In this document: piece after piece, positions 4,201 through 43,182 of the stretch
Numbering within the stretch: position 1 is the stretch's first letter
How the letters are laid out: each line of letters begins with the position of its first letter
DNA from: Mytilus edulis
Lineage: Eukaryota
DNA: 64,000 nucleotides
Direction of reading: 5' to 3'
Assembly: GCF_963676685.1 (NCBI RefSeq)
Contig: NC_092344.1
Span: 56,792,001-56,856,000 of the forward strand
The notes under the pieces: model-generated
Seen by the model: the letters and a program-made list of their open reading frames with translations, nothing else
Told to the model about the DNA's origin: nothing
Databases searched by the model: none
Translations under genes and position numbers: made by a program

Positions 4201-5630
4201 GTTTTCAAAGGATGAATGGTATGTTTCGCAACTAACATTAAGATGAACTATGTTTTTATTTTTATTTTTTAAGATTCAGTAACTCTAACCTGCATGGCAT
4301 TTTGTTCATTGACTTGGACAAATTCTTCTTCAAAATTAATAAAGGTTTCTTAAAACGCATTTGGTATTTACTGCTAAAAGGGCCTTTGATTTTTGCGTTT
4401 AGATAAAGTGTAGAGATCAATAACTTAGTTCAAACCTTAATGGAATTTCATAAAACATTTGCAAAAAGCTTTCAATTTCAAGACATATAAGGGAGTAATA
4501 AACTCTAAATCTGAGCGCCATAGATGGACATTCCAGCATTGAAGATATTAAAACTAGCGATATAAAAATCAAGCGATGCTGGTACAGACGAGATAAATGA
4601 GAAAAAAATATGTGACTGAAAATGTATAGTTTAGCGCTGTAGACATAGAGTTATGCGCTGTAGATATAAAGATCAACACACGGGATTTAACTTCTATAGC
4701 GCTTTTAAATATGTCAAGTCCAGCGACAGAAGCTACATCTTCAGATCTTCCACGCTAGACCTTGTATTTTTTGCGGTAGACTTGACATATTCGGCTTTAA
4801 TTCTGGATTTTGTGTCTCCAGATCCAGAACTTGTCATGAGAAGGGGGCGCTGACTGATTAAAGGGAGGCCCCAGTCATGCTTCAGTGACCCCTATATAAT
4901 CAACCAAATTTTTCACACGAAAGCCCCCCCCTCTCCAAGCCCCCTGGATCCGCCTATAATACCATTCACATAACATTTGAGCCTAATGCTTAGGACACCG
5001 GTGGTTTGTCTCTGACAAAGCGAACAAAAAGTAAAGTTCTTGTATATAATGTCTTGCGAATTCAGCACTGTAGATGTGAATATTAGCGACAGAATAAAAA
5101 AAAATGCAAAAGAGCAGATATTAAGTTAATATAAAAGGAAAATATGTCTTGCATTGGATATCCAATCACTGTCAGAGGTTATGTATTTCTTTGTATCATT
5201 AGGTTTTATTCTTTACATCGCAAGCCCAAAGACAGTACTTCTTCAAAAGACAAGTTTGCAGTTGCATTGCAAGATTTAGATGAATTTGGCTAATCGTTTA
5301 TCTTAATACCTTCTGGTTTTGCTTAACATCCGAATTGATACATGACTATAGGTAAAGATGTAAGACTTCAAATTTCTAGCGCACAACTATACATCTCAGT
5401 CATCTTAAGATTTGACATATATTGCGCTAGACATTGCTACTACAGGACCTTACGCATCCAGTAAAGGATTTATGCAGTGCGACCAGCGCCAATCAGACTA
5501 CGGCTATCTATATATAATTTTCACAGAGTTATGTCAGCCTCATACTAATGTTGAGTTATGATAAAGCACTAGAGAAGTAAAATTGAACGATGCAGATCTA
5601 TACTCTACTAATTATGTATTTAAGTAATCA

Positions 5631-5757
5631 GGGTTAGGGTTAGGGTTACATGTCATAACCCTAACCCTAACCCTTACCCTAACCCTAACTCTTACCCTAA
5701 CCCTAACCCTAACCCTAACCCTTACTACAACCCTAATCCTGACCCTAACCCTTACTA
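5631..5757. repeat. Inverted telomeric repeat junction: (GGGTTA)3-catgtca-(TAACCC)~15, running into an N gap
   Basis: Read directly at 5631-5648 and 5656-5757, with some variant units (TTACCC, TAACTC, TGACCC). Confidence 0.92.
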
Positions 5758-12408: not shown

Positions 12409-21900
<9,492 letters not shown>

Positions 21901-24902: not shown

Positions 24903-25247
24903 AATAGATGTAAGAAGATGTGATATAAGTGCCAATGAGATAACTCTCTATCCAAGTCACAATTTGTAAAACTAAACCATTATTGGTTAAAGTACTGTCC
25001 TAACAGGATGCCTTGCCTCACACCAAACAGCAAGCTATAAAGGCCCCCAAAGTGACCAGTGTAAAACCATTCATACAGGAAAAACAGGGGTCTAATCTAT
25101 AAAAAAAAAAACAACAAGAAACACTTATGAACCACATCAACAAACAGCAACCACTAATCATCAGGTTCCTGCACAAATGCAGCATGTTTAAACTTTTTAT
25201 AGATACCAACCATCACCCTTACCTGAAATAATAGTGTAACATCACAA
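24903..25247 (-). repeat. Second abundant dispersed repeat family (aagaagatgtggtatgattgccaatgagacaact end); further copies near 2800, 6270, 18520, 24200, 27590, 57935
   Basis: Repeated motif seen directly; this copy interrupts a hammerhead-carrying repeat. Confidence 0.7.
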
Positions 25248-26316
25248 TGTCTCTTTTTATTGATGCTCGTGGTCAAAATATTTGCACATCAAAAACAGAT
25301 AGAAAACAACTCCATATATAGAAGTAGATTTTATTTAAAATGTTACATTTTTAATAAAGGTTATGTATTTTATAGAATAACCTGCATTTATATGCATTTG
25401 AAAGACATACATTTGTAATTGCACAGAACTTTTGTATAATTACTTCTTAATGTATATTCAATAACAGTCATTCACATTTTGTTTATCAATACCGGTACAT
25501 ACATAATTCCAGCACTGTTGTTTGAAAATGAAAAAAAAATTGAACCAAAAACTTAATCTTTAAAAAATTATACCAGTACATGAATTTTTTTTACATCGGA
25601 ATATTAAAGAACTGATTATGTTATATAATAGGTGTGTAAAATGAGTATTTGGGCCTCAGTAACCAAGGGGTATTAGTAGTTCATCTACATTTATCCCTTG
25701 CTTGTAAAAGCTAAGGTTGTGAGTCGGACCACACTCATGGCTCTAGTCTTACTTGTTTTCCTGTTTGTTAATGATGATGAAGTAAAGTTATCTCCCCTTT
25801 ATTAATATAATATTCAGTTGACTTGTTTTGTTACATAATTCCTGTTGAAGTGGTGGTTCTCTACAGGTACTCAAGCTTCATCCACTAATAAAAGTAGGCC
25901 ATTGAGATATAGCCAATCAATCAATGAAATGGATATTCTAACACAAGATTCCAATAGCTAAGAGTTAATTAATTTAAATTCCTGCTTGGTTACCAGATTT
26001 CTGTGATGACTCTTTTTTTATAATATTTACAAGATTTTGATCTGTTATTCATTTTCTAACATTTCATCATATTGTAAGAACGACTGGTTCATTAAATTGG
26101 TTTAGCAAATTTCTCAGACGGTATTTGTTCATTAAATAGTTTTTGGAGGTTCTATCATATAAATCAAACAAGTACAATGCACACACCATAATAAAGAAAC
26201 AAAGCTGATAAGCATAAAACTACTGAAGTTAAGATTTATTGAATGAATGGCTGTTTCTATGTGTCCTACGATGAATAAGTACTACGATTGGATTTCTTAA
26301 CTTAAGCGGTTGAAAG

Positions 26317-26480: not shown

Positions 26481-29400
26481 TTACATAACTTTTAAATGTA
26501 AAGAACAAATATGATTATGTGAAGGTATTGACACTGCTCCTGCTACAGATATACCAAAGGAATCTGCAATGGTTGCTGCTCCTAAACTGTATTCTCTATA
26601 TTCTGCTCTAATCTGTAAAGATAAAAGTACATGTGTTTAAGCCTTATCAGCAAACTTAATCAAATATAGGTGACCGTCAAAAAGTATTAATATTATAGTT
26701 GTCAGCTACTATATGTCAGTTGGTCTCAGGTGGAGAGTTATTAGCAATCATACCAAATCTTATTTCTACTCTATATAAAATACTTATACATAAATCTACA
26801 TTCAAAACTATTATATCTTTCAACAACATTGAAAAATGCATAAGGTGACACTAGGGGTAGTGGTGAACTTCATGTAAGATAGTGTAAACATGTCTTTAAA
26901 TTCAATGCTTGTGAATTTCATGGATATAGGTGATCCAAAACAAAAGAAACGATGAACAACAAATTTCCTAAAGGCAGGTATGCAGAATTGGTAAAATCAA
27001 ATCCATAAAAATACAATTTTTCCTTGCTCCACAGGAAAAAAGGATCACATTATATACAACATTTAGAAATACTACCTACCTCTTTTGAAATTTGATAAAA
27101 TGTGTTGACAAAAGCTGCCCCTCCTAACAATCCTTCAAAGAATATGATCACAAATATTATGGCTATACTAGGTATATATCTGTAGAATACTTGTGTTAAC
27201 AGTATTCCTAGATTGATAAACTGAAAAAGAAGAAAATGTATTAATTACACATATATACACATTATTATTTTATCATTGTCTTGTAATTTTGCAGTCAAAC
27301 ATTGAAACCCTTTGTGTAATAGTTTTAGATAAATATGTCTTGAAACTGTTAACAAATGAGAAAGCATGTCAACATCACCTTTTTCGTTTGAAGATACTGT
27401 CAGAACAGGTTTAGTACTAAGTTCAAAATAGTTTGCTTCAAGATTTCTTCTTTTTTATGATAACAACTTTAACATCCAAATTCCAGAAAATATTTCAAAG
27501 TAACTTATTTTTATGAGAAAAAAAAATAAATAGATAATCATAAAAAAATTGTATAAAAACTAAGGTTATGATCATGAAACATAAGCATTCCTTGTCGTTT
27601 GTTGATGTGGTTCATAAGTGTTTCTCATATTTATATAGATTGGACCATTGTTTTTTTCCTAGTTGCTGGTTTAACGCTAGTCTTTTTTGTGGCCTATTAT
27701 AGCTTGCAGTTCAGTGTGAGCCAAGGCTCTATGTTGAAGGCCATACTTTGAACTATAATGGTTTACCTTTTACAAATTGTTTCTTTGAAGGAGAGTTGTC
27801 TCATTGGTACTCACACCATATTTTCTTATATCTACTTATCTAATTTCAGCATCTATTTTAATATGTATGTAGGATTTATTGCTCCTTTACATCATGCTTT
27901 TGGATTTTATACATAAGGCTTTCAGCACCACTAACATGAAATATATTTTTGAAATGTGCACATCAGACTCTGACTTCTCTTGAACTGAATTTTAATGTGC
28001 GTATTGTTATGCATTTACTTTTCTACATTGGTTAGAGGTATAGGGGGAGGGTTGAGATCTCACAAACATGTTTAACCCCGCCGCATTTTTGCGCCTGTCC
28101 CAAGTCAGGAGCCTCTGGCCTTTGTTAGTCTTGTATTATTTTAATTTTAGTTTCTTGTGTACAATTTGAAAATTAGTATGGCGTTCATTATCACTGGACT
28201 AGTATATATTTGTTAAGGGGCCAGCTGAAGGACGCCTCCGGGTTCGGGAATTTCTCGCTACATCGAAGACCTGTTGGTGACCCTCTGCTGTTGTTTTTTA
28301 TTTGGTCGGGTTGTTGTCTCTTTGACACATTCCCCATTTCCGTTCTCAATTTTATATAGTGTATGAATTAATTTTCTGCATATTGTAATTTTGATTTTAC
28401 AACAAACATCCAGATCCAGTGCTTAAAAGTCTCAAATTTTATTTTCCACTATAATTTTACTATTTCAGAATCTAGAACGGACCTGATATATTCCAGAAAG
28501 ATAATTATTTGTGATAAAATATCCTCTGGAAATGTTTGAACCATATTAGGGATATGAAGGCATCTCCAATGGTGAAGTAGACTGTGATTACATTTACTGA
28601 TTTTCATGGCACAATCAGACTTTTTTAGGTACTGTTGGAATGTAGTATTGGTATTTTGCTGATAACTTACCTGAATAATAGGAAGCACCCACAATCTTTT
28701 CACTTCAAAAAAATTGACAGAAGACCTGGATATAAAAACTCCCAGCTGGTAGTCTACTTGATACCTAAACCAGAAAGATAATAAACTGCAAATGTGTTAA
28801 TAAATTTTCTTGAACAAAGTTCAATACTTGTTACAAATAAAAGGAAATGTTGTGTAGACATCAACAAGACAGCAACCATGGCCATATAAGTAATAAAACC
28901 AGGCAACACATCCAGATACACATATTTGAATTGGAAGAGCTCTTTTTTCTTAAATTCTTAGCTATGAAAAAAATATGCTCAAATGGTGGAACTATGTAAA
29001 TTTATGGTAATGTGACCTGAATCAAAATGCACAACTTCAGCAGTGTGATTTGACTAAAAACATCTTTGTAATATTCCAGAAGAAAATATTACATGCAAAT
29101 TTAAGACAAAAAGGTTTAAAAAAAAAGTAAATAGACTTCCAACAATTCAGAGTAACCAAAGTTTGAAATAAATTCAAAGATTTATGATTTGCTTTTACAA
29201 ATAGCAAATATTTTATGAACAATTGCATTAAATCATCTTGCTGTTAGTCTTATTTGTTTTCCTTAATTGCTGAAGCTCATACAATGACTATTGGTCATCC
29301 TACATCCACATTATTTGGACTCTGGTAGATAGTTATCTCATTGGCAATCATACCACTTCTCCTTATTTTTATATTGTTCATTTTACTTACCATCTATATT

Positions 29401-35400: not shown

Positions 35401-38400
35401 TGAATGATTAATGCAACCATTATACTTTTGCTTATGTTTTAGAGATATAAGCCAAACCTGAATTTTACCCTTATGTCCTATTTTTAGCCATGTCAGTCAT
35501 TTTGGTTGGCAAGCAGGGTCATTAGACACATTTTTTAATAGGTTATGGCCAAGTTTGGTTTACTTTGTCTCATTAGTCTCAGAGGAGAAACTTTTTGTAA
35601 AGATTACAAAACTTTACACAAAAATCTTCAAATTTGACCATAAAGGGCAGTAACTCCTTTAGGGGTCAATTGACCATTAGGTAATATTGACTTATTTGTA
35701 GATATTACTTTGCTGAACATTATTTCTGTTTACAGATTATCTCTGTCTATAATAATATTGAAGATGGTTTCTGAGAAATAAGCAAAAATCTACATTTTAC
35801 CCCTATGTTCTATTTTTAGCCATGGCGAACATCTTGGTAGGCAGGACGGGTCATCAACACATTTTTTAAACAAGATACACTAATGATGATTGTGGCCAAG
35901 GGTGGTTGAATTTGGTCCAGTAGTTTCAGAGGAGAAGATTTTTTATAAAGTTAAATGCATATATATATGATGACGAAGGACGCCAAGTGATGAGTAAAGC
36001 TCACTTAGCCCTTTGGGCTAGTTTAGCTAATAAAAGGAGCAAATTAGAATGTATTAAAAATGTCGTCAGTAAAAATATCAAATTTTTTAGCTTTCTTGAA
36101 TTACATACCTGTAACTAATATGATGGATGTAGAATGGTGCTGTCAGTTTGATGATCAGCGTAGGTAATATATCTGCCAGCAGAATAGCCTGTTAAAAGGA
36201 TGTAAAATCATAAGTAAATGGACAGATGAATTTATATCTAGACTGATACAATGAAATGAATCAAATATAATACTTTATTAATAATCAATATTGAGTATCA
36301 TATTGCCTTAAACAGAAAAGATAATATTCTTTAGATTTCTGTCCATTATTCTCTGTTCGTTATATTTTAACACTCCATTATTCTTTATTTTTTGGATAAC
36401 TTTTTCTTAATTATATTTTGGCCCGTTTTTCTTTAGTATCGGTCTATTTTTCTCCTTTCTCTTAGTCCCATCCAGACCCTTATTAAGAGGGTTTAAATAC
36501 ATCACTTTCTTATAACTAATTTAACATATGAATTGGTCCTCTACTCATCAATAAGTATAGGTTTGTAACTTTGAATTCATCTACTTACTCCTGTGGATAT
36601 TTCATTGCACTGCATGTAATGCTCATCGACTGGTTCAGTTGTAGTTGTCTCCTAAAATATTAAAAATTATTTGATTATTCAACAACAGTTGTAATGATAA
36701 AGATAGATTGATGCACTTTTTAGTCCTGTTTTTATCTGAGACTCCCATATCTGCTCAATCCCTACCCTTAATTTCACAAAAAAAATTAAAAAAGAAACAT
36801 TTATGATGAATAATTCATTTGCAAGTGAATAGTTCAACCTAATTGAATCTGTATTCATGTGAACTTCAATTAAGCCCTTAGCAAGATATGGATACCGCAT
36901 GCATTGTGAGTGTTCAGTGGTTTAAAAGAAAAGAATGTCAGCATTGAAAGTGAAACAAAGGTTTTAATCATTTAATTGACTAATTCGATCCAAAAAAAGC
37001 ATTCTTATACACGTAAAAGGATGATTAACATATATTTTTAATCTGTCATATAAAATTAATCAGACCTAGAAAAATCCAAATGCACAGTCTTAAATCTATC
37101 TATATCTATACTATATTTATGTTTATATCCCTTAAATGGCAATCAATTACGAAACGTTCTGGATCCGCCACTGTAAGCTAAATACTTTTGACATCCGAAA
37201 TTATTTTTCCTGAAACATTAGTTAAACCGCCGATACATCACTTTGAATTCATCATGCTTTGCATTGCCAAAAGCCAATTTTGTCCGGTATGGAACCAGTC
37301 CATGATTGACAAAGGGAATTAATTTGTTTAAAAAGTGTGTAATAACAGAATCAAATTGGTAATTGGCAAATGGATTATTAGATTGTGTCTAGACTAAAAT
37401 ACAGTACAAGGAATGAAGCTACATATTTTTGTGCCCATGTACAGTATATTGTTTATTTTAGACTTTGTATAAATTTAATAAATGTTTTACATTGTTATAA
37501 ACCAAACATTTTGTCAAATAAGAGAACTTGAGTCAGATTGGTGAACATTAATTTGACAACTAGTGCCCCTTTAAACTGTAAAATTGGATTTTTCTTAATT
37601 ATTGGAAGGTAATTTTAACTTCCCAACACTTAAATTACAACCTATTAAAATATCTATGTTTAAACATTTTCTGGCATAAATTTTAGATTTGAATATACCT
37701 CATCCTAGACAGTTTCTTAAATGATATACATCTACTTACATTATGATGAACTTCAGCACCTTTTTCTTGTTCTTTCAGTATATCATGAGCTGCACTCAAC
37801 ATTATCACATAGGCAAAATTATTACATAATCCAAGTATCCTATCAAAAATGTGGAGCAAAATCAGTCATTTGTTAGAAGAATGTTTACATTGATAAAGTT
37901 ACATGTAAATCAAGGCCTAATTGTTTTGTTTATTAATACATGTCATGGGACTTGAGAATACATGTATGTGGAGCTCTATTTTCAAATGGACTAGGTTCGA
38001 CTTTTCTAACTAAGACTCTGATTACAAGAATTTTTATGAAGGAAAATAACTACTTAAATTATAAATGAGACTTTTTATTAATTGCCAACCTGATATGGTC
38101 ATGTCCCATTCATAAAAACATCGCAATAATTTTTGAATTTACAGTATATATTCATTTACCTAGTCATCAGTATAAGAATATTGATCAATTCATAAAAAAA
38201 TACATGTGTGTCTTGGTATAATACAATATATATATTCTGAATACTTTTGTATAAAACATACAATTATATAAATAAAATTAACGGTACCAATTTTCTTGCA
38301 CCAGATGCGCATTTCGACAATACATGTCTCTTCAGTGATGCTCGTGGCCAAAATATTTGAAATCCAAAGCTTATATAAAAGATGAAGAGCTATAATCCAA

Positions 38401-41400
38401 AAGGTCAAAAAAGTATAGCCAAATCTGTGAAAGGAATTAGAGCTTTGCATGAGGGAGATAAATTCCTTAATTTATAAATAATTCTATAATAATTTCTATC
38501 ATAAAAATATACATATAAATTACAATGTAATATTTTATGTGTATACTTACCAGAAACCAATCAAGTTTCTTTTCTTATCAAATGAAGACAATACATTGCC
38601 TGTGGCATCTGTGAAAAAAAGATTTCAAAATATGAAATGTTGGACATCTGATATTATTTGCTTCACTAAGTTAACTGGAAGGAAATGGATGGCCAGGATC
38701 CAATGCAAATCACTGATATTTGTACAAGAAAATAGACCCTGCTTGCAATTTCGTCTACATTTTTAAATAAAATTTTTGAAATCTTGAGATCAATAATTGT
38801 ATATTAAGTTGTGTAATGAGCTGTATAATAAGGTAAACAGACAGAAGGTCCGAGACCACAAGACGAATATAGTCCCTAGTGTTGACAGTGGGTTACTGAA
38901 ATTACACTGTAAAAAAATTTGGGTCCAGAATTTTAAAGGAAAGTAGTGATTTGGTCCAGATGAAAAAGGTTGAAAATTAGCACTTCGGAAGCTGTCAAAA
39001 GATTTCAAGACGCCCTAAACATAAAATTGTCCATATTTTGAGTTAGAGCCGATGAAGTTTTCTATAATTTTGATATAATTTTGTCCCAAAAGTAGTACAA
39101 CACACTGTAAAAGTTTCTTTGAGAAAGTGCAGGTGGGATTTTTTTAATTTTCATTTATGTTCTAAAAGAAATGCACTACGAAATAATTGTGGTCTCGGAC
39201 CAAAAAGTCACAGGACAAAAAGTTACCGGACATAAAGTCACAAATTTGATAGGACAAAAAGTCACAGGACAAAAAAGGACAAAAAGTCACAAATAATTTT
39301 GTGACAATTGTTTTAATATACATGTATATATATATATTTTTTTTACATATTCATTTTTAAGTTAAGGAAATTGCTCATAAACCTTGATAAATGAAAATGT
39401 ATTAAATTTTAATCATGTAAAATATATATTTATTGGCAAAATAAAGCCATTTAAGTACCAAGCCACTTTGACATTTTGTTTTCATAACAATTATTTGATC
39501 ATTATTGATATTTATTGAATAAATTTTAATAACAAAGGGCTTTATATATAAAAATATCAAGAAAAATGCAAAAAAAATATTTTCAAAATAAGTGTTTTCT
39601 TGTTCAAAGAAAAATAATCTCAAATCTGAATTGTTACTTTTTGTTTGTGACTTTTTGTCTGTGACTTTTGTCCTTTGAGCTTCTGTCCTACATTCATGTC
39701 AAGTGTCTATTCAATTATGTAATACCGGGTACAACATATTGTCAAATTAGATTGGCATCAGCATGATCAGAGTGGAAGTATTCCAATAAATAATCACACA
39801 TAAATTGTTATTTGTAAATTAACATGATTAAGACAGTTGTCAATCATACTTGTACTGTTGTATCAGTAATAATACTATTTGAAAGGAAAAAATATGTTGA
39901 ATGATTCAGACAACTACATTGCAATTCATGCCTAATCAATAATGAATAAAGAAAAGGATCTTTGAGTTACTTTTGAGTCAAATTGAAGTATTAAAAAAAA
40001 TTATAAGTAGTATTGTTAATTAAACACAGAGGAAATTTCTCAATGCATCATTCTTTTGACTATACATGTACAAATGTACATGCTATATGGACATGATGGA
40101 TCAGGATATGTTTCTTACTTTTTAAAAGTCAATTGTTTGTCAACTGTTTAAAAAAGGGGGTCTCATTGGGGGGGGGGGGGTTCTGATCCTGCTTACTGTT
40201 TTGTCAGATTCCTGTATCCCGCTTACACTATGTACGTAAGCAATTCTCAGTATTTTGTAATTTCCTGTGTACCGCTAAACTTCATTTCCTGTTTTCACGG
40301 CACAATAATTTTACTTTCATGTGTCACCCTTACAAAAAATCGACAATCCCGCGTCACGCTTAGACCCCAATGAGACCCACAAATAGTGTTACATGTGTTT
40401 GATCTTTTAAAAGATATTTGTAATTTGATATCTGTTCAAGGAAGGGTCACAAAACTTGTTTCAGATATAAAAAAAATAAGTTATGAAGATTTATAACTTT
40501 CATTGTGATTACCAAAGTTGGAAAAAACATCATGAACATGATTCACAGTTGGTCTACACTAAAGAGCTTTACATGTATGGTTTTGAGGATATTACAATTT
40601 AACTGGATGTACAATGTATCTTTATACTTTAGCACCATTTTATTCAAATAAACTAGAGGTCACTCTTTAAAACTTTTGAAGAAACATTGTAAAATTGTAG
40701 GATGAGACATAGATTAATAAATCCTTTTCAATACACCTTATTGCTATTCGGTAATCTGTTCCCCTTGACCAGAAAATCTACCCTGCTTGAACTATTGACG
40801 CATACAACAATCACTTTTCCATTGTGGCATCAGATATTTTGTATTATAATGCCAAAATTTTACAGGAACCTTGATAATGTTCAGCAATGCCAGACAAATA
40901 GAGACAAGGTCTATTTAGAGTGATAGATCAGTGGAATGACCTGTCAGGTTTTTTTAAAGGCCTTTGAATGATTTGGTTGAATTTGGAGTTTTGGTCTTCC
41001 AACAGACTATTGGAATCCCAATGGGTACCAATTGTGCTCCTCTACTTGCAGATTTGTTTTTGCATTCCTATGAAGCAGAATTTATCCAAGGGCTTGTACA
41101 GAAAGGAGAAAAGAAATTAGCCCAGTCTTTTAATTTCACCTAAAGTTCGGTATATTGATGATGTACTCTCTCTTAATAATAATAGATTCAGTGATCACTT
41201 ACATTTAATATATCCAAGTGAACTTGATATTAAAGATACTACAGACACAGATAAATCTGCTTCATATTTAGACCTCTTTTCTCGAAATGACTACTGTTGG
41301 TAGGTTAAATACCAAAATTTATGACAAACGCGATGATTTTAATTTTCCTATAGTTAACTTTCCATTTCTGTGTAGCAATATCCCAGCAACACCAGCAAAT

Positions 41401-43182
41401 GGAGTATATGTGTCTCAATTGAAACGTTACTCTAAAGCTAGCTCAAAGTACATTGATTTTGTTGAACGAGGAATACTGCTTTCTCAAAAGTTGCTAAGAC
41501 AGGGCTATGAATCTATCAAATTAAGGTCATCACTCAAGAAATTTAATGGTTGCCATCATGAGCAGGTTGACCATTATGTCAAAAGTGTGTCAGAAATCAT
41601 ATCTGATATTCTTCCTCAGGCATAATAACCTGCCATCATTACCGAACTGAACAAAGAAATAACATGATGGGTGCCATATAGGGTGCAGCAAATGCTTACC
41701 CTTCCGGAGCACCTGATTTCACTCCAATTTTTTTAGTGGAGTTCGTGTTGTTTCTTATTTATTAATTGTAACTGTTGATGTAAATGTCTTTTGGTTTTAT
41801 GAGTCTTTGTTTACTCCTTGGTTTTGATTGTTATTGTTTATACCGTAATAAAGTTAGCTTTAAATGATGAAAACAGGAACCTGTATAAGATTATAAATTC
41901 AAGTTCACTGCAAATACCTATAAAAAGAAGTGTTACTTCAATATCATTACTTGAGCATGTTGAGTAGAAATTCTCACTACAACATTTCCAAGATAATATT
42001 CTATATTATCTACAGTGAATGAAGAAAAGGATCTGGGAGAAACTTTCGAGTCTAATTTTAAAATTTGAGAAACATATATGTGATATATATACATGTAACA
42101 AAGCGCAGAGAGTGTTATCATGGTTATCTCTTATTCATCATTCTTTTGATTACATAGATCAAGATATGTTTCTTACTATTTATAAATCAATAGTGCATCT
42201 GTTGTAAGAATATATGCGACATGTGTCTGGTCACCGTACCTTAAAAGACATAGATATGCAAACTGAAATCTGTACAAAGAAGGGCCACGTCTGAAACTTG
42301 TAAAAAATATATACAATGTATCATCTTAATTTTGAAGATAGACTACGTTCATTGGGTTTGACAACCTTGGAATATCGTAGGGATAGGAATGATATGATAC
42401 AAATCTACAAGGCTTTGCATGGTATAAATGACATCAACTGGATGAGCCTATTTACTTTAGCCCCATCTAATAATACTATATAGGTCTCTCAATAAAACTT
42501 TTTAAAAAACAGTGCAAGACGACACTCAGACTAAATACTTTTTCAATTAGAGTAGTGGATCAGTGGAATAACCTGTCAGATTTAACTGTGACGGCAAAGA
42601 CCTAGAATAATTTTAAGTCTGCATTAAATGGTGAAAATTGGAACCCGTATAAATTCATATGTTCGTGTTAAGTGTTCAGCTGTGCACACCTAAATAAGTT
42701 TTTTAATAAGTCTATATATATAAATATATTATTATGAGATGAAAAATCATATTTCGACAATCCAAGATGAGGGGTCAGTCTAGTAGAAGTGGTTTGACTT
42801 ATGTAACAACCCGAAGATAAAGGTATAACATATATAACATGTATAATTGAGCCAGCGATTTTATTTTTTTTTTATCTGAAAAGAATATCAAAGACACATA
42901 AATATGACTATCAAACCATTGTTTACACCAAGGATTTATGATATTTTTTTTAGTGAGTCAATACAAATCTTTGTTTACAAATTATACATCCAAATGCAAA
43001 GAAAAAGGTCAGAGAATGGAAACAGACTTTTTTTTTTTGGTCATATGACATGTATGATAGACATAGAAAACTTCAAAATATATTTGTGTATGTGTCATTG
43101 AATTAAACAAAATTATAAATATACTTTGCATGTTTTCTCTAAAACTAAGCTCATCTTTTGAACGTGTTTCATTTTCATTCAT
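26481..43182 (-). CDS. CLN3: Battenin / CLN3 lysosomal transmembrane protein, 15 coding exons, 434 aa
   Basis: Minus-strand exons 43182-43125 ([19 protein letters not shown]), 38608-38551 (..KRNLIGFW), 37839-37740 ([21 protein letters not shown]..), 36651-36589 (..CNEISTG), 36188-36109 ([19 protein letters not shown]..), 34723-34638, 33990-33918 (..[15 protein letters not shown]), 33356-33213 (..[18 protein letters not shown]..), 31621-31521, 30747-30698, 30235-30167 (..[12 protein letters not shown]), 29446-29391 (..QYRW), 28764-28671 ([15 protein letters not shown]..), 27220-27080 (..[14 protein letters not shown]..), 26612-26481 (..[12 protein letters not shown]). All GT-AG, phases consistent, 1305 nt. 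Exon 1 is inferred from phase and position (~0.75); the rest carry CLN3 family motifs. Confidence 0.95.
27966..28355 (+). repeat. Abundant dispersed SINE-like repeat; partial copies at 17936-18120 (-), 18850-18975, 30000-30105, 47340-47405
   Basis: Shared ..gaagacctgttggtgacc..gggttgttgtctctttgacacattccccatttccattctcaattttat end. Confidence 0.8.
30962..31122. mobile_element. Short MITE, CAGTGG..CCTCTG termini, 5-bp TSD (ATAAA)
   Basis: cagtggtggatccag..aaatccgcctctg; ATAAA at 30957-30961 and 31123-31127. Related fragment at ~4818-4957. Confidence 0.78.
32035..33162 (-). mobile_element. HINE-like element (family C) with ~147-bp tandem repeats and GCC microsatellite, CLN3 intron 8
   Basis: gaaccatgaaaatgaggtcaaggtca at ~32180, 32327, 32474, 32621, 32770, 32922. 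(GCC)n at 33061-33117; terminal hairpin ctgcatcaaaagttgcag. Confidence 0.8.
35355..36030 (-). mobile_element. Older HINE family B copy in CLN3 intron 5
   Basis: Same termini (aactag..gtcgctcacct; gctcacttagccctttgggc..agctaa) and about one unit of the 502-bp repeat. Confidence 0.78.
38272..38482 (-). mobile_element. Dispersed repeat carrying the hammerhead (possibly Penelope pLTR- or retrozyme-derived)
   Basis: Decayed relatives at 24870-24902 plus 25248-25300 and ~27895-27965. Origin is inferred. Confidence 0.6.
38298..38341 (-). ncRNA. Minimal type I hammerhead ribozyme (CLN3 intron 2, sense strand)
   Basis: Minus strand: GCAUCA-CUGAAGA-GACA ugua u UGUC-GAAA-UGCGCA-UC^-UGGUGC. All core nucleotides present; stem I 6 bp, stem II 4 bp, palindromic stem III (AUGCGCAU). 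Confidence 0.85.
38847..39201. mobile_element. MITE with perfect 15-bp TIRs (GGTCCGAGACCACAA), nested in the end of a foldback element
   Basis: ggtccgagaccacaa at 38847 and ttgtggtctcggacc ending at 39201. Confidence 0.82.
39202..39696. mobile_element. Foldback-type element with inverted arrays of ggacaaaaagtcaca
   Basis: Direct repeats at 39202-39290, reverse-complement repeats at 39632-39690. Confidence 0.7.
40156..40380. mobile_element. MITE with GGGTCTCATTGGGG TIRs
   Basis: gggggtctcattgggg .. ccccaatgagacccac. Confidence 0.75.
40940..41840 (+). mobile_element. Penelope-like retroelement 3' fragment (RT palm and thumb, 3' tail)
   Basis: [27 protein letters not shown], then ORF 41287-41625 ([40 protein letters not shown]). 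One stop and frameshifts. Confidence 0.88.
41870..42670 (+). mobile_element. Decayed CR1-type LINE 3' fragment; a second older fragment at ~40380-40720
   Basis: [46 protein letters not shown] across broken frames. Confidence 0.8.

Follow-up and report, generated by a model that had tools for sequence, protein, structure and literature searches.

A 5′-truncated retrozyme copy carrying a type I hammerhead motif in an intron of mussel CLN3

An intron of CLN3 carries a 5′-truncated retrozyme copy with one hammerhead ribozyme in sense orientation. Our preferred reading, to which we give a probability of about 0.84, is that this copy very likely belongs to the non-LTR retrozymes of mussels, that it was probably inserted by a Penelope-type reverse transcriptase and occurs on some chromosomes only, and that CLN3 mRNA is likely affected little or not at all. 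The element class is already known from mussels, and we found no published account of a hammerhead at the CLN3 locus. In itself the locus adds a further copy to a repeat that has been described before and is of little import. The window referred to below is the whole 64-kb stretch of DNA that was analysed.

The hammerhead lies at 38298–38341 on the minus strand and was identified by reading the motif, by a descriptor scan and by compensatory changes in a sister family. From 38341 to 38298 the letters are GCAUCA CUGAAGA GACA uguau UGUC GAA AUGCGCAU C UGGUGC. Helix I has 6 bp, helix II has 4 bp with a 5-nt loop, and helix III consists of A-U and U-A pairs with a GCGC tetraloop on top, which makes an 8-nt palindrome. 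The triplet is AUC with C17 at 38304, and the cut is predicted between 38304 and 38303. All features of the class are present, namely the CUGANGA and GAAA core, three helices, an NUH triplet and an open helix I, and every element listed for this site by the sequence-only reading was recovered. A candidate distal extension of helix I (38286–38348, minus strand) is predicted from the pairing of GCCA (38348–38345) with UGGU (38289–38286) beyond an internal loop; the pairing is possible in 73, 56, 65 and 72 of 81 copies, counted without indel correction.

A descriptor scan gave a single match in the 64-kb window, which was unchanged at four stringencies. When the window was shuffled 300 times by blocks, with dinucleotides preserved, these stringencies gave 0.013, 0.007, 0 and 0 matches per shuffle, with zero matches in shuffled windows at the stringency reached by the motif. 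An Rfam scan, which had been proposed as a check, gave no hammerhead at the gathering score (0 matches in the 64-kb window) and none at E ≤ 10 on 1.1 kb, where only two unrelated matches were seen. In this the motif differs from other canonical metazoan type I hammerheads. As the consensus features are all present, we ascribe the missing match to the models, whose reach does not extend to this variant. Folding of the 44-mer was no better than that of shuffles (z 0.55), and the same was true for 61- and 101-mers. For the bare 44-mer this need not surprise, given that it is a small three-way junction.

Related copies give further evidence on the structure. The core, helices and triplet of the CLN3 copy are those of the commonest family core. 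Among 36 variant-core copies, which are not mutually independent, loop II varies at 0.228 per site compared to 0.049 for stem II. A sister family in the same genome has GUCU/AGAC as helix II, GCGUCA/UGGCGU as helix I and the palindrome ACGCGCGU. Relative to the CLN3 motif it shows four compensatory pairs and one wobble across helices I–III (7 matches at 4 loci), and the helix III palindrome is kept through compensatory change. This covariation backs the predicted hammerhead structure. Judged by its sequence, the motif in the CLN3 intron is a real type I hammerhead, for which self-cleavage is predicted.

The motif is not special to CLN3 but one copy of a high-copy hammerhead repeat. It occupies the 3′ part of a 231-nt element (38271–38501, minus strand) that corresponds to monomer positions ~122–350 of a non-LTR retrozyme unit and is 96% identical to one natural tandem unit. 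The 5′ end is ragged and partly duplicated (38501–38478). A DNA search of the genome gave 459 candidates, and the 40 that were scored are 94–100% identical. Many family matches are found in head-to-tail arrays with periods of 350, 352 and 339 bp, the shortest having 2 units and the longest more than 20. In the genome (1.37 Gb) the 32-nt core occurs 3,336 times in exact form and 5,348 times under a relaxed pattern, which amounts to roughly one core per 260 kb; a reversed-pattern control gave 0. The earlier proposal that the motif belongs to a retrozyme repeat is borne out, as the 231 nt align to the ~350-bp tandem unit and the copy-number check returned thousands. At the family level, this fits the definition of a metazoan non-LTR retrozyme, namely a type I hammerhead in tandem repeats of 150–450 bp with a GC content below 50% and in many dispersed copies.

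The sister retrozyme families (L138, L151, L161 and L137; G000:C1) have a spacing of 354–356 bp in arrays, and they share with the family of the CLN3 copy a ~60-nt hairpin after the ribozyme tail. The hairpin pattern has 7,222 genomic matches, and all 30 loci examined belong either to the CLN3-copy family (9) or to sister families (21). The window also holds a decayed retrozyme piece at 25247–25306 (80% over 60 nt, core broken), which has the orientation of the main copy and sits ~1.2 kb past the last CLN3 coding exon.

Retrozymes have been described in Mytilus galloprovincialis (Cervera and de la Pena, 2020; PMC7229834), where ~5,000 type I hammerheads of two similar families sit in 350–390-bp repeats. 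Abundant retrozyme circles and both linear and circular RNA were reported, the RNA being plentiful in gonad and mantle, and a cloned repeat cleaved in cis during transcription with a kobs of ~0.1/min (PMC7229834). According to the same source, mussel ribozymes are without most of the nucleotides of the loop 1–loop 2 contact. The family described here shares with these non-LTR retrozymes the ~350-bp low-GC tandem repeats, ~5,000 ribozymes, the presence of two families and the lack of LTR structure. It is most likely the published mussel retrozyme family, judged by unit length, copy number and the two families and not by the letters of a clone; the assayed clone (353 nt) may represent the sister family and not that of the CLN3 copy. 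Unlike the M. galloprovincialis retrozymes, the CLN3 copy is lone, 231 nt long and 5′-truncated, with one ribozyme. The fixed end at +33 that characterizes the copies here goes without mention in the passages on M. galloprovincialis retrozymes cited above. Two tandem ribozymes are present in the arrays, while the 64-kb window has one. As it has only this one ribozyme, the CLN3 copy cannot release a circle and is a dead-end member of its family.

The copies have a common 3′ end. From the cut site to this end there are 33 nt (38271–38303, minus strand), ending in ...AAUUUUAUU, and the end is the putative start of reverse transcription. We compared 41 copies, the window copy and 40 apparently non-array copies on one contig that were hand-picked from the first 100 core matches listed; two pairs of these share flanks. 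The 3′ ends were taken from the BLAST end column together with the flanking letters. In 39 of the 41 copies the match to the monomer ends at +32 to +42 past the cut site, with unrelated flanks behind AAUUUUAUU, and the remaining two continue into a following unit. On the 5′ side the copies extend over anything between 42 and 667 nt. A common 3′ end combined with ragged 5′ ends is a mark of target-primed reverse transcription, and 39 of the 41 copies show this signature of retroposition at the family level. Loose contig ends at 38271 are seen in 143–180 contigs per DNA run. At CLN3 the insertion site is AT-rich, the element is sense to the gene, and the trinucleotide ATA (plus strand) is found on both sides (38268–38270 and 38501–38503), probably representing a short target-site duplication or microhomology.

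We suggest the following route for the insertion. The ~350-bp tandem units each bear the hammerhead, and in the published accounts of such elements arrays are transcribed, self-cleaved into monomers and ligated to circles, as the transcripts of the arrays here would be. Reverse transcription would start 33 nt past the cut site on an intact circle or an uncut multimer. Because copying that starts 33 nt inside the unit crosses the cut site, the template would have to be uncut at the ribozyme, which fits the circle model. Copying would then go back through the ribozyme and halt at a variable point, which at CLN3 would have been reached after 231 nt. The product landed on the sense strand in the AT-rich intron site with its 3-nt flanking repeat. 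In the pre-mRNA a single ribozyme would be slow, often misfolded and incapable of circle release, and co-transcriptional exon pairing would absorb most of any cutting. Because of the fixed 3′ end, any insertion longer than ~75 nt would carry the whole ribozyme, and most insertions would have an intact ribozyme without selection. Intactness would therefore reflect youth and not function, and a fixed end 33 nt past the cut would explain intact ribozymes across the genome. Seen from the family alignment, the intactness of the ribozyme in CLN3 needs no functional explanation.

CLN3 is on the minus strand, with eight exon-sized matches to PF02487 in the window between 37838 and 26502; the 33-aa exon matches with an E-value of 3.5e-10. 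The insertion is located in a GT-AG intron of 711 nt (37840–38550), probably the second coding intron, between an upstream exon of 58 nt (38551–38608) and a downstream exon of 100 nt (37740–37839; PF02487 positions 5–31). One RNA contig from run X16 (other species label), which is not tied to the filled or the empty allele, joins 38608–38551 exactly to 37839–37740. The candidate first coding exon (43182–43125) is one of 20 candidates and was chosen by eye, and "intron 2" is a plausible name for the host intron. The predicted cut site comes 247 nt past the donor, which leaves 464 nt up to the acceptor, in good agreement with the earlier placement of a sense hammerhead ~250 nt past the donor. 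A second, weaker CLN3-family locus (G000:C7:19114854-19121207) has three PF02487 pieces, the best with an E-value of 8.4e-5, and is a possible paralogue.

We compared five DNA runs at the insertion site (X4, X8, X7, X2 and X9), of which four were informative; X9 gave no cover of the junction. The insertion junction was seen in two of the four, X4 and X8. In X4 a contig across the 5′ junction has a depth of 30.5, and the shared flank contig, which starts exactly at 38501, has a depth of 58. X4 is heterozygous for the insertion. In X8 (other species label) a 444-nt contig spans the junction. No contig of X7 covers the junction. A flank contig from this run goes left of 38501 with AATTAT, corresponding to 38262–38267, and then into the end of a different repeat, and a second flank contig departs from the window after 38263. 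We read X7 as a site without the retrozyme, with the 3-nt flanking repeat and with an independent insertion 6 bp away, a reading that leans on both contigs and on a 6-letter AT-rich match. In X2 a contig breaks from the window at 38501 and goes on for 42 letters that differ from it, and the depth (16.4) is equal at 38229; this is indirect evidence and would fit an empty allele. Presence is more readily shown by contigs than absence is, but the branch points speak positively for the existence of other alleles.

Taken together, the insertion is polymorphic and apparently missing in some animals. The claim that every CLN3 pre-mRNA carries the ribozyme does not hold, given a junction in two of four informative runs, one of them heterozygous. 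Absence from most individuals with unchanged CLN3 output had been named as evidence against a regulatory role, and the polymorphism is one part of that condition. The insertion is not fixed and conserved at an orthologous site, as a domesticated regulatory ribozyme would be. Being sense, intact and segregating, it makes heterozygotes an internal control for the question of whether intronic retrozyme hammerheads, which number in the thousands in animals, ever cut the host pre-mRNA.

The repeat seen in X7 is itself of high copy number (38261–38267 at this site), and it and the retrozyme appear to have inserted independently of each other in a single AT-rich spot. The X7 repeat ends in ...CTCAATTTTA and the retrozyme in ...TTAATTTTATT, a resemblance which hints at a common endonuclease or primer preference. 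The 3′ end of the X7 repeat has three copies in the window, at 17938–17957 (minus strand), 18953–18972 (plus) and 28334–28353 (plus), one of them within the CLN3 span.

How much of the CLN3 pre-mRNA a single ribozyme could cut was estimated from a rate of 0.1/min, which is borrowed from a 37°C assay of possibly a different family. At a transcription speed of 1–4 kb/min, 1–5% of transcripts would be cut by the time the acceptor emerges, and if splicing were delayed by 5 min ~40% could be cut first. Intronic hammerheads of amniotes also lie on the sense strand, and they differ from the CLN3 copy in being single-copy and conserved. It is unlikely that the single ribozyme cuts in cis, with no trans partner, to an extent that lowers the output of the filled allele and makes it a mildly harmful or neutral regulatory allele. 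Such an effect would be consistent with the commonest family core, the sense orientation, cis cleavage of the mussel monomer (PMC7229834) and the figure of up to 40% under delayed splicing. There is also a precedent in the HDV-like ribozyme of Cpeb3, which modulates Cpeb3 mRNA and, like the CLN3 copy with its predicted activity, is an intronic self-cleaving motif in sense orientation (PMC10919898). The Cpeb3 ribozyme, however, has a half-life of 2–3 min, lies 9,931 nt ahead of its next exon and is single-copy and conserved (PMC10919898), whereas the CLN3 copy is polymorphic, one of thousands, and has 464 nt to its acceptor. Furthermore, splicing is reported to survive when a slow hammerhead cuts the intron and to be aborted when a fast ribozyme does so (PMC2995048, on Dye 2006 and Fong 2009). 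The filled allele has not been quickly purged, since it occurs in runs that carry two different species labels. In Xenopus, 42–44% of retrozyme copies are intronic, yet there is some depletion in introns (10.64898/2026.07.22.740005), which by analogy may be a hint of harm from such insertions.

Folding in context was considered as an argument for inactivity and rejected. The predicted probability of helix I in the intron context is 0.02 or less. The natural monomer, linear or circular, scores as low (0.01 or less), so context folding does not discriminate; four other control stretches gave no matching core.

A broader possibility, which we consider quite doubtful, is that mussels have natural ribozyme alleles in the form of polymorphic retrozyme insertions on the sense strand of genes. 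Transcripts of the filled CLN3 allele would then be cut as they are made, and more so where family RNA is abundant and completes a double hammerhead in trans. If this were true, the tuning of CLN3 expression by the repeat would be a segregating trait in mussels, and many other genes would be affected likewise.

The regulatory model of the sequence-only reading is very improbable. In that model family RNA would pair with the CLN3 pre-mRNA through the AUGCGCAU palindrome, and the resulting double hammerhead would cut in trans and couple CLN3 to repeat expression. Folding of the bare motif is in agreement with the pairing step, as two 44-mers are predicted to cofold into an exact double hammerhead (-27.3 kcal/mol versus -7.8 for one copy), with -10.5 for the palindrome duplex and +4.7 for the 2-bp hairpin. 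Conservation of the palindrome in the sister family, the abundance of family RNA in mussel gonad and mantle (PMC7229834) and the general rule that a short helix III favors dimer activity (PMC4209133) point in the same direction, and the dimer idea appears physically sound for the bare motif. The cofold was, however, computed on bare 44-mers, and helix I is predicted to be sequestered in both the natural circle and the intron. Dimer activation has been described for tandem copies on one RNA, whereas a bimolecular encounter would have only seconds to minutes. The polymorphism of the insertion argues against a fixed circuit, and nothing in the model is specific to CLN3. Thus, of the dimer claim, the predicted double hammerhead stands; activation in trans is not known to be needed, as the cloned mussel repeat cleaves in cis at ~0.1/min (PMC7229834). 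Most invertebrate hammerheads with such a helix III cleave as monomers (PMC7761336).

The motif had also been called minimal, a term that does not apply. Canonical metazoan type I hammerheads have 6 bp in helix I, 4 bp in helix II, 1–2 bp in helix III and a small palindromic loop, while minimal ones are without a helix III beyond the conserved nucleotides and have 7–8 bp in helix II and 4–5 bp in helix I (PMC4209133). With helices of 6, 4 and 2 bp, a 4-nt palindromic loop and the capacity to form dimers, the CLN3 motif is of the canonical class as defined there. The minimal hammerheads of Penelope-like elements (PMC4209133; PAc, PMC11167929) share with the mussel element a palindromic helix III, dimer capacity, a fixed 3′ end near the ribozyme and an AT-rich target. 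They differ in helix sizes, with no helix III, a helix II of 7–8 bp and a shorter helix I, and they flank an RT/GIY-YIG ORF, which the mussel element does not have.

Insertion by a Penelope-type reverse transcriptase is probable. A Penelope-like enzyme initiates internally at fixed sites and uses AT-rich targets (PMC11167929), and animal retrozymes have been described as derived from Penelope-like elements (10.64898/2026.07.22.740005). All 18 junction loci examined (of 30; the rest are one array) are retrozyme junctions. Two have a reverse transcriptase fragment nearby and none has an ORF starting from the unit. At 20 loci bearing a reverse transcriptase, all are 5′-truncated and the 3′ end differs from that of the retrozyme. 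A helper enzyme was not found among these 18 junction, 30 hairpin and 20 reverse transcriptase-bearing loci. That the motif instead remains from the pseudo-LTR of an autonomous Penelope-like element whose hammerhead was minimal is hardly credible and largely refuted, since, despite the Penelope-like fixed 3′ end and 5′ truncation and the very common Penelope-like reverse transcriptase fragments in the genome, the whole 231 nt including the hammerhead align to a non-coding 350-bp tandem unit with no RT/GIY-YIG element, the helix sizes are canonical (PMC4209133), and the junction loci are those of retrozymes.

The window has traces of other elements. A C-terminal reverse transcriptase fragment at 41272–41625 (plus strand) lies antisense in the putative first CLN3 intron, and from its motifs we take it to be of the Penelope/Naiad type. 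The reverse transcriptase is very abundant in the genome (37,535 first-look candidates), and a longer relative gives only a weak RVT_1 match. LINE-type RVT_1 fragments are present at 15582–16245 (minus strand; E 2.4e-15). A degenerate run of telomere-like hexamers, which reads as NP/VR dipeptide repeats, is found beside an N stretch at 5624–5757.
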